41,621 bases of DNA. Origin: a virus (lineage: Duplodnaviria; Heunggongvirae; Uroviricota; Caudoviricetes). Made by a program: the position numbers and the translations under genes. Every line of letters starts with the position of its first letter. The stretch's first letter is position 1. The stretch lies in IMG/VR virus record IMGVR_UViG_644736364_000004; one strand, 5' to 3'. Below the pieces are notes generated by a model. That model was not told the origin of the DNA. It did not search any database and saw nothing but the letters and a program-made list of their open reading frames with translations. Of this stretch, positions 4,993-8,222 are shown one piece after another.

Positions 4993-5125
4993 TTTTTGGG
5001 ACTCCTGGCTGATTAAGTATGTCGATAAGGCGTTTCCATCCGTCACGTAATTTACGGGTGATTCGTTCAAGTAAAGATTCGGAAGGGCAGCCAGCAACAG
5101 GCCACCCTGCAATGGCATATTGCAT
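4961..5125 (-). CDS. cIII: CIII (FtsH inhibitor that stabilises CII), 54 aa
   Basis: Hand translation of the minus strand from the ATG at 5125: [54 protein letters not shown], stop TAA at 4961-4963. Too short for the ORF track; overlaps kil as in lambda. Confidence 0.7.
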   Translation of the reverse strand: MQYAIAGWPVAGCPSESLLERITRKLRDGWKRLIDILNQPGVPKNGSNNYGYPD

Positions 5126-5197
5126 GGTGTGCTCCTTATTTATACATAACGAAAAACGCCTCGAGTGAAGCGTAATTGGTATGCGGTAACGCCGCGC

Positions 5198-6162: not shown

Positions 6163-6744
6163 ATGAACAACTCATGGTGGCAGGAACTAATGCATTTTTT
6201 CCTGCAAGGAATGACACTTAAACAGTTGATTCATATGCTAATCATCCTGATCATATTGATTATTGTTATGCCGGTAAGCGTAAAAGAATGGATAAACCTG
6301 CATAATCCAGAAATCCTTCCTCATTACTGGATGTATTACATCCTGTTGTTTTGCGTTAGCTATGTGCTTAACGGCGTTGTTAATTCCGCTTATCACGCTG
6401 TGACTGAAAGAATTGAGGTATTCGCTGCTCAGAAGCGCAAATCTAAAGAAGAAAAATATGTGCAAGATTTGTTTGATTCGTTAACTCTTGGAGAAAGAGC
6501 GTATTTGGCATTCGCTGTAGCCGCTAATAACCAGCTACAAACGGAAAAGGGCGCTCATGAATCAATTTCATTGCTCAAAAAAGGACTCCTCGTTCGAAGG
6601 CCTCCTGCTGTTGGATATCCTGATACCGACCGTTTCGTTATCCCTGAAAGCTATAGACATGAGTGCTACATTAGGTTTGCCGGGAAGGCAGACAGCCTTA
6701 TGGATGAACTTATCGCTCAGGATAAGCATGGCAAAAACAAGTAA
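6163..6744 (+). CDS. sieB: SieB superinfection exclusion protein, 193 aa
   Basis: Translation MNNSWWQELMHFFLQGMTLKQLIHMLIILIILIIVMPVSVKEW… matches lambda SieB; rightward gene embedded in the leftward operon, as in lambda. Confidence 0.8.
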   Translation: MNNSWWQELMHFFLQGMTLKQLIHMLIILIILIIVMPVSVKEWINLHNPEILPHYWMYYILLFCVSYVLNGVVNSAYHAVTERIEVFAAQKRKSKEEKYVQDLFDSLTLGERAYLAFAVAANNQLQTEKGAHESISLLKKGLLVRRPPAVGYPDTDRFVIPESYRHECYIRFAGKADSLMDELIAQDKHGKNK

Positions 6745-6760
6745 TTAGCAAATGAATTTA

Positions 6761-7033
6761 TCATCTCGCCGTCAGTTGTTTTGATTTCCGGTAGCCTGCC
6801 GCGTAAAGAGCTACGTTCGGAAGACAAGTTGAACCTTCATATTTTCTGGTCAACGTTGTCAGAGTTATCACTTCTGCTCTCATTGCTGGTTTGAGCTTGC
6901 ATTGCAAGACCACTCGTGAAGGGGTTGGCCTGTGTAGCTTGTCGGAGCTGATCGCCTCCTGACTTTGCAGATTTGCGCGACGAGCTCTACGGCGAGAAGC
7001 TGCGGTGCCTTTAAATTCTGTTTTTCTGGACAT
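6761..7033 (-). CDS. N: N-like transcription antiterminator, 90 aa
   Basis: Start at the in-frame ATG at 7033, preceded by GGGAGG with 5-nt spacing; N-terminal arginine-rich motif (GTAASRRRARRANLQ) of the N family; sits between pL/nutL and the early genes. Not lambda N itself. Confidence 0.65.
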   Translation of the reverse strand: MSRKTEFKGTAASRRRARRANLQSQEAISSDKLHRPTPSRVVLQCKLKPAMRAEVITLTTLTRKYEGSTCLPNVALYAAGYRKSKQLTAR

Positions 7034-7131
7034 GGATTCCTCCCGAATAAACTTTGGCGATGCAATCTCGAAGCTCCTCCTGAGACGGTTGCTTCGGCAT
7101 TGCATCCCACAGCTTATGTGGTTGGGTGATC

Positions 7132-7177
7132 TGGCTTTTCAGCCACGTAGTCGAGAGTCGACGTTGTTTAAAGAGCC
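7132..7177 (-). promoter_or_regulatory. nutL candidate (boxA-like GGCTCTTTA plus boxB-like hairpin UGGCU-GAAA-AGCCA)
   Basis: Minus strand reads GGCTCTTTAAACAACG…GGCTGAAAAGCC; a nearly parallel arrangement (CGCTCTTTG…CGCTGAAAAGCG) occurs on the plus strand after cro at 9813-9858. Confidence 0.5.
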
Positions 7178-7270
7178 TGCCAGTCTGTTCCATTTGGCTT
7201 CCAGCGTCCTGCTGACGGTTAAATAGTACGATATGTACTTTACAAGATCAATACAATTTGTTGTAAGTTG
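7178..7270 (-). promoter_or_regulatory. pL/oL interval (candidate -35 TTGATC, 17-nt spacer, -10 TACTAT, with operator-like repeats)
   Basis: Minus strand contains TTGATCTTGTAAAGTACATATCGTACTAT and a TACAA-N4-TTGTA inverted repeat; the motifs AAAGTACATAT and TTGTATT recur in the cI-cro intergenic region. Confidence 0.4.
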
Positions 7271-7437
7271 GCGTGGTTTTTTATAACGCTTTGTATTTAA
7301 TAGTGTTGTTTTTTAGCGTGGATGTATTGCCTCGGCGATGTAAGGAGAGATCAGAATTGCGTGGTTTAGTGGGTTGCATCTATTTATTTTTCAATAAATA
7401 TAATTGGTTATGTGTTTTTAGGTGGGCGAACGTGAGG

Positions 7438-7464
7438 CAAAGAAAACCCGGCGCTGAGGCCGGG
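7438..7464 (-). terminator. Rho-independent terminator closing the cI operon
   Basis: On the minus strand, stem CCCGGC-CUCAGC-GCCGGG (plus 7447-7464) followed by UUUUCUUUG, beginning 6 nt after the stop of the 250-codon gene. Confidence 0.6.
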
Positions 7465-7469
7465 TTGTA

Positions 7470-8222
7470 TTATGCTGCAAGTCTCTTAACCCAAGTCTCT
7501 CTTTTGGAGAATGGTAGAACTTGGCTTGATTCATGGAAGAGTAAGGAGAGTTGTTGCATTTGATCACCAATTGCTTCGCTGTCTATAACAACAAATCTGT
7601 TGTTATACTCCTCACTTGAAGCTTTAAGATCAATTAGTTTCCCAAGCAATGAGTAAGCACTATTCCAGCTTCCTCCGTGTTTCACGCTTGATGTAAAAAC
7701 GTATTTAGGTATGTCGGTTTTTATTGTTACAGGGACGGTAATTTGATGTCCACTCAAGCCATATACGTTTTCACGAAGAGAAAGTGCGTCTCTAAGCTCT
7801 GTGTGATATAGATAATCAATAACCATACTTTCAAACTTTTCAGCTTGAACTGGCTGATACCAGTCTAACGACAAAGTTGATGCGAGTATACCAGCTCTAA
7901 TTATGTTCGATGTAATCGCACCGACATCCTTTTCTGTTGCCCAAGCAATGATTTCTCCTCGAGCATTGAGTTCTGCGCCTTCTTTAAGCAGTAATTGTCG
8001 TATCTCATCAAGTCGTTTTTTGGTAAGCGAGATCCCTCTTGCCTCCATATTCATTAAGGCATCGCATCTGTCACTAACTAAATACCTACCATTGACTTCA
8101 CGGATAAAGGCACCGACATGCTCTCCATCATCACAGTAAGTGAATGGACTGATAATTCTCAAGGTCTTGCCTATTGGATGGCATTCGAAACCTAGTTGTG
8201 AGATCACTGTTGAGCACATCAT
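7470..8222 (-). CDS. Uncharacterised protein, 250 aa; distal gene of the cassette downstream of cI (rexB-equivalent position)
   Basis: ATGATG start whose first codon overlaps the TGA of the upstream 185-codon ORF; followed by a terminator; AT-rich by inspection; no transmembrane segments and no family recognised. Confidence 0.65.
   Translation of the reverse strand: MMCSTVISQLGFECHPIGKTLRIISPFTYCDDGEHVGAFIREVNGRYLVSDRCDALMNMEARGISLTKKRLDEIRQLLLKEGAELNARGEIIAWATEKDVGAITSNIIRAGILASTLSLDWYQPVQAEKFESMVIDYLYHTELRDALSLRENVYGLSGHQITVPVTIKTDIPKYVFTSSVKHGGSWNSAYSLLGKLIDLKASSEEYNNRFVVIDSEAIGDQMQQLSLLFHESSQVLPFSKRETWVKRLAA

Follow-up and report, generated by a model that had tools for sequence, protein, structure and literature searches.

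Does the long imperfect hairpin that precedes the antiterminator gene N in a lambdoid phage act in the same way as the hairpin of the lambda N leader? The question is raised by the 41,621-nucleotide (nt) sequence of the IMG/VR virus record IMGVR_UViG_644736364_000004, which is called the window below. N is the first gene expressed from the promoter pL, and the level of N gates all delayed-early expression. In lambda, the N leader contains, in order, NUTL, a hairpin sensitive to RNase III and the N ribosome site. The window belongs to a lambdoid phage; over positions 6700-7500 it shows 100% identity with the Escherichia phages ev017 and ev207, and the N-leader segment (7000-7240) shares 99% identity with VT2-Sakai and many Stx-converting phages. 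Its early-left operon lies on the minus strand, which is the sense strand of pL and N. Structural and evolutionary evidence makes it very probable that the hairpin of the window is a lambda-type N-leader stalk. Judged by sequence comparison, it appears to be the ev017/VT2-Sakai-type version of the already known lambda-type N-leader processing hairpin, uncharacterised in this family.

The hairpin between nutL and N

The interval 7034-7131 runs from just past boxB to the base preceding the N ATG. In this interval, the first-pass annotation had described an inverted repeat forming a 14-base-pair (bp) stem with a 2-nt mismatch and a 16-nt loop. Sequence reading and a repeat search bear out both arms, 7059-7074 (GATGCAATCTCGAAGC) and 7091-7106 (GCTTCGGCATTGCATC). 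The 16-nt arms are 88% complementary and pair as 8 bp, a 2x2 mismatch and 6 bp. The placement claimed for the hairpin, between nutL and N and ending about 25 nt before the N ATG, agrees with the positions found here: nutL occupies 7176-7133, the stem ends at 7059, the Shine-Dalgarno (SD) sequence lies at 7044-7039 and the ATG at 7033-7031.

RNA folding, which had been proposed as a check, favours the structure. The fold of 7131..7034 has a free energy of -39.3 kcal/mol, compared with -23.5 +/- 3.2 kcal/mol for 200 dinucleotide shuffles (z = -4.98; 0/200 shuffles reach it). When the ~243-nt leader and early coding region was folded, each of the 14 core pairs had an ensemble probability of at least 0.99. 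The raw minimum free energy (MFE) is unexceptional, within the top 1.8% of 98-nt segments of the 41.6-kb sequence. The structural case rests on the composition-corrected z-score and on conservation. The presence of the hairpin is confirmed. The earlier description holds for the core and falls short for the extent, since the helix continues below the 14 bp and spans 7117-7047. From the base up, this processing stalk consists of an AUAAGCU/AGUUUAU helix, a 1x1 G/A mismatch, UGG/CCA, the bulged G7058, the core (8 bp, 2x2 loop, 6 bp) and the 16-nt apical loop. The whole helix contains about 24 bp plus a weak apical mini-helix, and its base at 7047 is 2 nt from the SD sequence GGGAGG.

Variation within the family was followed in 88 copies, which represent 19 distinct sequences of the window leader type. 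A total of 25 substitution types were found among these copies, 9 of them in the 16-nt apical loop. The 28 paired core nucleotides carry only two, A7105>G and C7091>U, both keeping a G.U pair, and the bulged G7058 is frequently A. Low substitution in the core relative to the loop is the pattern that would be expected of a selected stem, at a diversity too low for a strong test. The search of IMG/VR by N protein returned only copies that are 98-100% identical, and the same approach in a genome collection yielded four loci that were of little help.

A stalk frame shared by lambdoid N leaders

Twelve named leaders (lambda, P22, 21, phi80, H-19B, 933W, epsilon34, Oslo, 103203_sal5, mEpX2, mEp234, and POCJ13) were compared with the leader of the window. 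About 75 further pL leaders from IMG/VR were located by a scan for the conserved pL transcript 5' end, CATCAGCAGGACGC; individual leaders are cited below by L numbers. A 36-class alignment of anchored segments was built on the CCAAAG-type anchor, and the pairing counts below refer to it. Phage 21, L120, L158 and some others fall outside the anchored alignment and were inspected by eye only.

About 40 lambdoid leader classes have a frame in common after boxB, although their N proteins, nut sites and apical sequences are unrelated. It begins with a hairpin of the form (A)CCAAAG-loop-(G)CUUUGG, followed by a segment of 8 nt (b), an apical module of about 12-190 nt that varies between leaders, and a second 8-nt segment (pre) complementary to b. 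An unpaired purine and CCAAAG complete the stalk, and about 10 nt further the SD sequence and the ATG follow. The MFE fold closes the stalk via CUUUGG:CCAAAG pairing in every leader folded. The frame reads CUUUGG-GGUGUGUG ... CACACACC-A-CCAAAG in lambda and CUGUGG-GAUGCAAU ... AUUGCAUC-G-CCAAAG in the window.

Pairing in the b:pre helix reaches 97.6%, with two-sided changes recorded for every one of the 8 pairs. Pair variants include GGUG/CACC, GAUG/CAUC, GAUU/AAUC, ACUG/CAGU, and GCAA/UUGC. None of 500 shuffles reached the observed values, and slid registers gave 24-50% pairing. The positions of b and pre follow from the sequence motifs that flank them, and pair types vary widely from class to class. 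The window itself contributes a compensatory change from G-C to A-U (GAUG/CAUC, against GGUG/CACC in lambda).

The closest parallel is with lambda itself, where nutL, a long imperfect hairpin, the SD sequence and N follow each other on the pL transcript in the same order. The stem bases, CUUUGG-GGUG...CACC-A-CCAAAG in lambda and CUGUGG-GAUG...CAUC-G-CCAAAG in the window, differ by a single change that is left unpaired, by one pair in which the change is compensated, and in the bulge, where one purine replaces another. Both leaders have an unpaired purine before CCAAAG and a similar distance from CCAAAG to the SD sequence. The apical part of the window stalk, however, is unrelated in sequence and far shorter (49 nt between the six-base anchors, against 107 nt in lambda). 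At its base there is a G x A mismatch, and the family-specific AUAAGCU/AGUUUAU helix lengthens the stem; the leader measures about 183 nt rather than 223 nt. The first-pass annotation had called the hairpin analogous to the lambda element; the shared order, the homology of the stem base and the covarying inner pairs support a stronger term, homologous. By sequence comparison, the hairpin first described corresponds, in the version of this family, to the upper and middle portions of a stalk that the lambdoid N leaders examined have in common. Searches with Rfam 15 gave no covariance-model match at the leader (6900-7500), even at E <=10, nor in ten related loci, and the stalk frame is absent from Rfam.

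H-19B, 933W, P22, 21, phi80, epsilon34 and mEpX2 also share the stalk frame and the upstream CCAAAG-loop-CUUUGG hairpin with the window, but each family has another apical module. The H-19B and epsilon34 types are closest to the window in N protein and in the SD-proximal leader (CCAAAGUU.AU..GGAGG). The rrn operon leader offers a more distant likeness. There, too, a Nus-factor loading site is followed by one strand (boxC) of a helix cleaved by RNase III (PMC8632103; PMC2724277). The partner strand of boxC lies 1.7 kb downstream and the product is rRNA, whereas the helix in the window is local and its product would be an mRNA with a shortened leader. In the lambda cIII mRNA (Lambda_thermo), as in the N leader, alternative RNA structures and RNase III affect translation in a pL-operon leader. 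Gene, sequence and structure are different, however, and the N-leader stalk has no match to RF01804.

The upstream CCAAAG-type strand gives the CUUUGG-type strand a second possible partner. In the window this alternative is a short hairpin, CCACA-UAAGC-UGUGG, which is mutually exclusive with the base of the long stem because both use the 5' arm of that base. Only the window family combines CUGUGG with a matching upstream CCACA. In the full leader of the window, the base extension has a probability of about 0.6 and the short hairpin of about 0.36, and the long form is favoured energetically in every class, by 1-20 kcal/mol. Over the 36 classes, hairpins of the CCAAAG-loop-CUUUGG type are 96.8% paired, with double-sided changes at 4/6 pairs. 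Compensatory variants, from at least four lineages, are CCAAAC/GUUUGG (P22 type), CCGAAG/CUUCGG (L203), UCAAAG/CUUUGA (L137 type) and the CCACA/UGUGG of the window. The downstream CUUUGG:CCAAAG pairing is about 88% paired, with uncompensated mismatches in 11/36 classes at one position and in 7/36 at another. Across families, the short hairpin covaries better than the long-stem base. The U-to-G arm change of the window is matched upstream (A to C) and unmatched downstream (G x A). The short hairpin was also seen at the equivalent position in all related leaders, L090, L096 and L005 among them.

Apical modules form a mosaic; they are swapped at the conserved base of the stem, without regard to the type of N or nut. 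A module of about 100 nt (GGUGAAGGGUUCAUGGACGGG...GGGUCUCCCACCUACCAC) occurs in identical or closely similar form in L091 (933W), L099 (mEp234) and L220 8800-8990 (phi80). The same module is present in leaders with lambda-type or mEpX2-type nut sites (L130 and L180), L130 being an otherwise lambda-type leader with the 933W module. Very short stalks of about 12-13 bp were observed in L120 and L158 (for example, GUUUUGG-GAUGG-AAACGA-CCAUC-G-CCAAAAU), with the frame otherwise kept. The N protein of L120 is related to that of the window.

Proposed processing by RNase III and competing explanations

In lambda, cutting by RNase III prevents N autorepression and leaves antitermination unharmed. The enzyme reportedly cuts the lambda leader at about +88/89 and +197/198. 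We take these positions to fall between CUUUGG and GG and between CC and AAAG of the frame, with the expected 2-nt stagger. In the proposed mechanism, the stalk of the window would form on the nascent pL transcript and host RNase III would cut both strands near its base. Transfer of these lambda sites predicts a 5' cut between 7107 and 7106 and a 3' cut between 7056 and 7055, and the processed N mRNA would start at AAAGUUUAUUCGGGAGGAAUCCAUG. Such cutting would detach the nutL-N-Nus complex from the RNA that encodes N and take away the helix beside the ribosome site. N autorepression would be relieved and N translation raised, and the supply of N would be tied to the RNase III level of the host. 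From the lambda case, we infer that RNase III cleavage and its effect on N translation would extend to the phage family of the window. We judge the full mechanism, in which the stalk is cut by RNase III and N synthesis is raised, to be reasonably likely.

The SD sequence through the AUG has a mean unpaired probability of 0.35 in the full leader and 0.64 in an RNA starting at 7055, as obtained by folding after a virtual cut. This thermodynamic hint suggests that processing may benefit translation. For lambda, RNase III processing of the N leader is referred to in a passage of PMC5371410 (citing Steege 1987), and a passage of PMC9032294 (citing Kameyama 1991) counts N mRNA among the transcripts positively regulated by RNase III. 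A passage of PMC5725501 (citing Wilson 1997, 2002) describes the lambda nutL-to-N interval as 'highly structured' and states that N and Nus factors at NutL repress N translation.

Several points weigh against this mechanism, or against the reading of the stalk on which it builds. The window stalk is among the shortest, with 49 nt between the six-base anchors compared with 107 in lambda. A G x A mismatch and a bulge interrupt its stem base, and a cut at the homologous site would leave only about 17-19 bp-equivalents above. Because of the short apical part, the mismatch and the bulge, efficient double-strand cleavage is not guaranteed. The placement of the predicted cuts depends on the reported lambda coordinates. 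A search of the accessible literature found no report on RNase III with Stx-type or VT2-Sakai-type N leaders. Diversity within the family is low, and the evidence for covariation was drawn from other N-leader families and not from the upper stem of the window hairpin. In addition, complementarity helped in choosing the b register and the upstream copy, and the pair counts therefore lean towards structure.

The stalk might instead act uncut. It would then compact the ~85 nt between nutL and the ribosome site, and the complex of N, Nus factors and RNA polymerase at nutL would occlude the N start. A stable helix 2 nt from the SD sequence would also dampen initiation, and RNase III would not be the effector in this family. 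The end of the helix at 7047 and the mostly paired SD-to-AUG segment of the full leader fit such a role, and a passage of PMC5725501 raises the possibility that a structured interval affects the compactness of the loop between nutL and RNA polymerase. Moreover, the stalks of the relatives L120 and L158 look too short for a canonical RNase III substrate although the frame is kept. RNase III may not be the effector in all of these phages; otherwise, short stalks would have to work in another way. What compaction alone would not lead one to expect is that, across phages, no part of the stalk is more conserved than the region cleaved in lambda. Phages likewise retain the CUUUGG / purine-CCAAAG frame, although any stable hairpin would serve compaction. 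A role without cleavage, which we consider unlikely, remains a serious alternative. Two other identities fared worse. An intrinsic terminator or attenuator, either of leftward transcription or of rightward sieB read-through, might be suspected from a stable GC-containing hairpin in a leader. However, neither the minus strand (CGCCAAAGUUUAUUCGG) nor the plus strand has a U-run after the hairpin, transcription of N has to pass through the hairpin, and the terminator scan found nothing there on either strand, its only calls being the pRM-operon terminator (7466-7445) and the dyad in the nutL spacer. We rejected this identity on the lack of a U-run and the negative scan, and regard it as scarcely credible. 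The region could also be coding, with N starting at the AUG at 7105 (114 amino acids, aa) and the inverted repeat incidental. The frame is open from 7105 to 7033, and AP005153 annotates a 345-nt form (6761-7105), but the chance expectation for a 24-codon open frame is about 1 in 3. No SD sequence precedes 7105, where the AUG is buried in a helix with a probability of at least 0.99, whereas the strong SD sequence GGGAGG precedes 7033 and VT2-Sakai annotates 273 nt (90 aa). The Pfam N_peptide profile begins at Met-7033 and leaves the extension uncovered, the H-19B and 933W N proteins begin at the equivalent Met (MTRRTQFKG), and the codon at 7105 is GUG in POCJ13 and 75/02. The coding extension was rejected on the SD sequence, the profile start, the homologous N termini and the GUG codon of POCJ13; it is highly improbable, and the evidence favours a 90-aa N over a 114-aa N in this family.

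A further explanation compares the stalk to a tRNA acceptor. It would be a minihelix with a G1:C72-like pair, a discriminator purine and CCA, cut by RNase P and tRNA 3'-end enzymes, and the upstream short hairpin would keep the 5' leader away from the CCA. The 3' strand ...C-purine-CCA is conserved in 29/36 classes, and in the window G7058-C-C-A follows the G7106:C7059 pair. The same bases also pair with the UGG of the 5' arm, which explains the CCA equally well, and the third base of the CCA-type triplet is U or C in 7 classes. The most tRNA-like case is L187 (an IMG/VR leader starting at 587), in which ARAGORN calls a 70-nt tRNA with anticodon UAG at 691-760, inside the stalk. The b:pre helix (GGUGUGG/CCACACC) supplies the acceptor stem of this tRNA call, the 'bulged' A occupies the discriminator position and is followed by CCU, and the T-arm is perfect; the match of L187 to the Rfam tRNA clan is nevertheless sub-threshold (16.7 bits against a 47-bit gathering score). 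T-arm-like hairpins (GGUUCGAxUCC) adjoin the stalk 3' strand in L138 (~8003-8066), L132 (~2357-2400) and L151 (~7252-7300), and L138 gives a weak match (E = 0.18) to the T-arm/CCACC region of tmRNA. The phi80-induced M3 RNA is a classical non-tRNA substrate of RNase P (PMC11143913, PMC10731613) and the phi80 leader has the same stalk frame, but a derivation of M3 RNA from the phi80 N leader is conjectural. ARAGORN found no tRNA in the window, the phi80 leader or 22 related leaders, and processing in lambda is reported as RNase III-dependent. For the window hairpin, the tRNA-like reading was rejected, with no ARAGORN gene in the window and no Rfam match in 6900-7500, and we consider it very unlikely.

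If the stalk is indeed processed by RNase III as in lambda, the short hairpin may have a part in it. In the fold of the predicted 5' product, which ends at 7107, the short hairpin sits exactly at the 3' terminus, and we speculate that the hairpin caps the nutL RNA after processing. A wider model would treat the lambdoid N-leader stalk as a conserved bistable processing module, in which one CUUUGG-type strand has two alternative CCAAAG-type partners. After the cut at the base, the N-nut RNA remaining on RNA polymerase would be capped and made more stable by the short hairpin, and N mRNA would be freed with a short open leader. In this model some stalks would be tRNA-like (L187), perhaps processed by RNase P, with a possible link to the phi80 M3 RNA. 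We put this model forward tentatively and consider it doubtful.

Should the stalk work as in lambda, the supply of N in VT2-Sakai-type phages, a group with many stx2 carriers, would be linked to host RNase III activity and, through it, to growth state. In the Stx-converting relatives, the N-dependent chain ends in toxin and phage release, and rnc and the stalk would, if this is true, be testable levers on induction efficiency. The comparison also brings a practical correction, since N in this family has 90 aa and not 114 aa. The family-wide definition of the stalk, with its covarying pairs, is usable for automatic annotation of N leaders and nutL regions. Beyond a known type of hairpin, the locus draws moderate interest from a frame that is shared across the family and missing from Rfam, from the alternative hairpin with its covarying pairs, and from the tRNA-like variant.

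Features of the pL leader

The features of the stalk and of the adjoining early-left region are listed in Table 1.

Table 1. Coordinates of the N-leader stalk and neighbouring features in the window
Feature	Position	Strand	Basis or remark
Full long imperfect stem-loop (processing stalk)	7047..7117	(-)	MFE and centroid structure
Core 5' arm, GAUGCAAU GC CGAAGC	7091..7106	(-)	Pair probabilities at least 0.99
Apical loop, AACCGUCUCAGGAGGA	7075..7090	(-)	Variable in ev017/VT2-Sakai-type leaders
Core 3' arm, GCUUCG AG AUUGCAUC	7059..7074	(-)	Repeat search and folding
Bulged purine G7058 and CCAAAG (7057-7052)	7052..7058	(-)	Stem-base 3' strand; homologous to lambda +195 to +201
Alternative short hairpin, CCACA-UAAGC-UGUGG	7107..7121	(-)	Just after boxB
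In-frame upstream AUG within 5' arm	7103..7105	(-)	Open reading frame (ORF) list; probably not the real start
Putative pL	7223..7251	(-)	-35 TTGATC 7251-7246, 17-nt spacer, -10 TACTAT 7228-7223
nutL	7133..7176	(-)	boxA GCUCUUUAA 7176-7168; boxB GGCUGAAAAGCC 7144-7133
nutL spacer dyad, GUCGA-CUC-UCGAC	7162-7150	(-)	Between boxA and boxB
N SD sequence, GGGAGG	7039..7044	(-)	Sequence reading; 5 nt before ATG
N antiterminator gene	6761..7033	(-)	90 aa, MSRKTEFKG...LTAR

The N protein belongs to Pfam family N_peptide (PF25694; E = 1.5e-32), whose profile alignment starts at the first Met (7033), and is annotated as N in the identical phages and in VT2-Sakai. The same kind of N over-extension was noticed in the lambda RefSeq record (402-nt coding sequence). 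A lambda-type leader from IMG/VR, L186, has a small extra ORF (MNNEALKEMIAKLLEDARRIQEVEPNAGTQSRIDEAMKLLKGE) with its own SD sequence inserted between the stalk and the N start; the usual SD sequence of the stalk drives the extra ORF, and N follows with a second one.

A pattern search for nutL gave a single exact match (0 expected by chance), which coincides with the nutL annotation of VT2-Sakai. The real boxB, UGGCU-GAAA-AGCCA at 7145-7132, is a short stem with a GNRA-like loop. The long hairpin was also considered as a boxB-type N-binding hairpin, and this was rejected on its 16-nt loop and its location 26 nt further downstream of the real boxB. The nutL spacer dyad was flagged as a weak terminator-like site by the plus-strand terminator scan. 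Spacer dyads of this type are reported for H-19B nut sites.

The putative pL matches, position for position, what the VT2-Sakai record AP000422 labels a 'putative major leftward promoter'. It was not picked up by the consensus promoter scan, in which its score lies under the 9/12 threshold. The transcript would start at about 7216, giving a leader of about 183 nt. Elsewhere in the operon, the cIII thermoregulator Lambda_thermo (RF01804) was identified at 5080-5138 on the minus strand (88.5 bits), and it is the sole Rfam family in the window at the gathering threshold. The first 14 nt of the pL transcript, (C)AUCAGCAGGACGC in general and GUCAGCAGGACGC in the window (~7216-7203), are nearly invariant among leaders L100-L219. 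This 5' end is conserved across lambdoid phages despite unrelated N, nut and repressor types, and a small hairpin precedes boxA in each pL leader compared.

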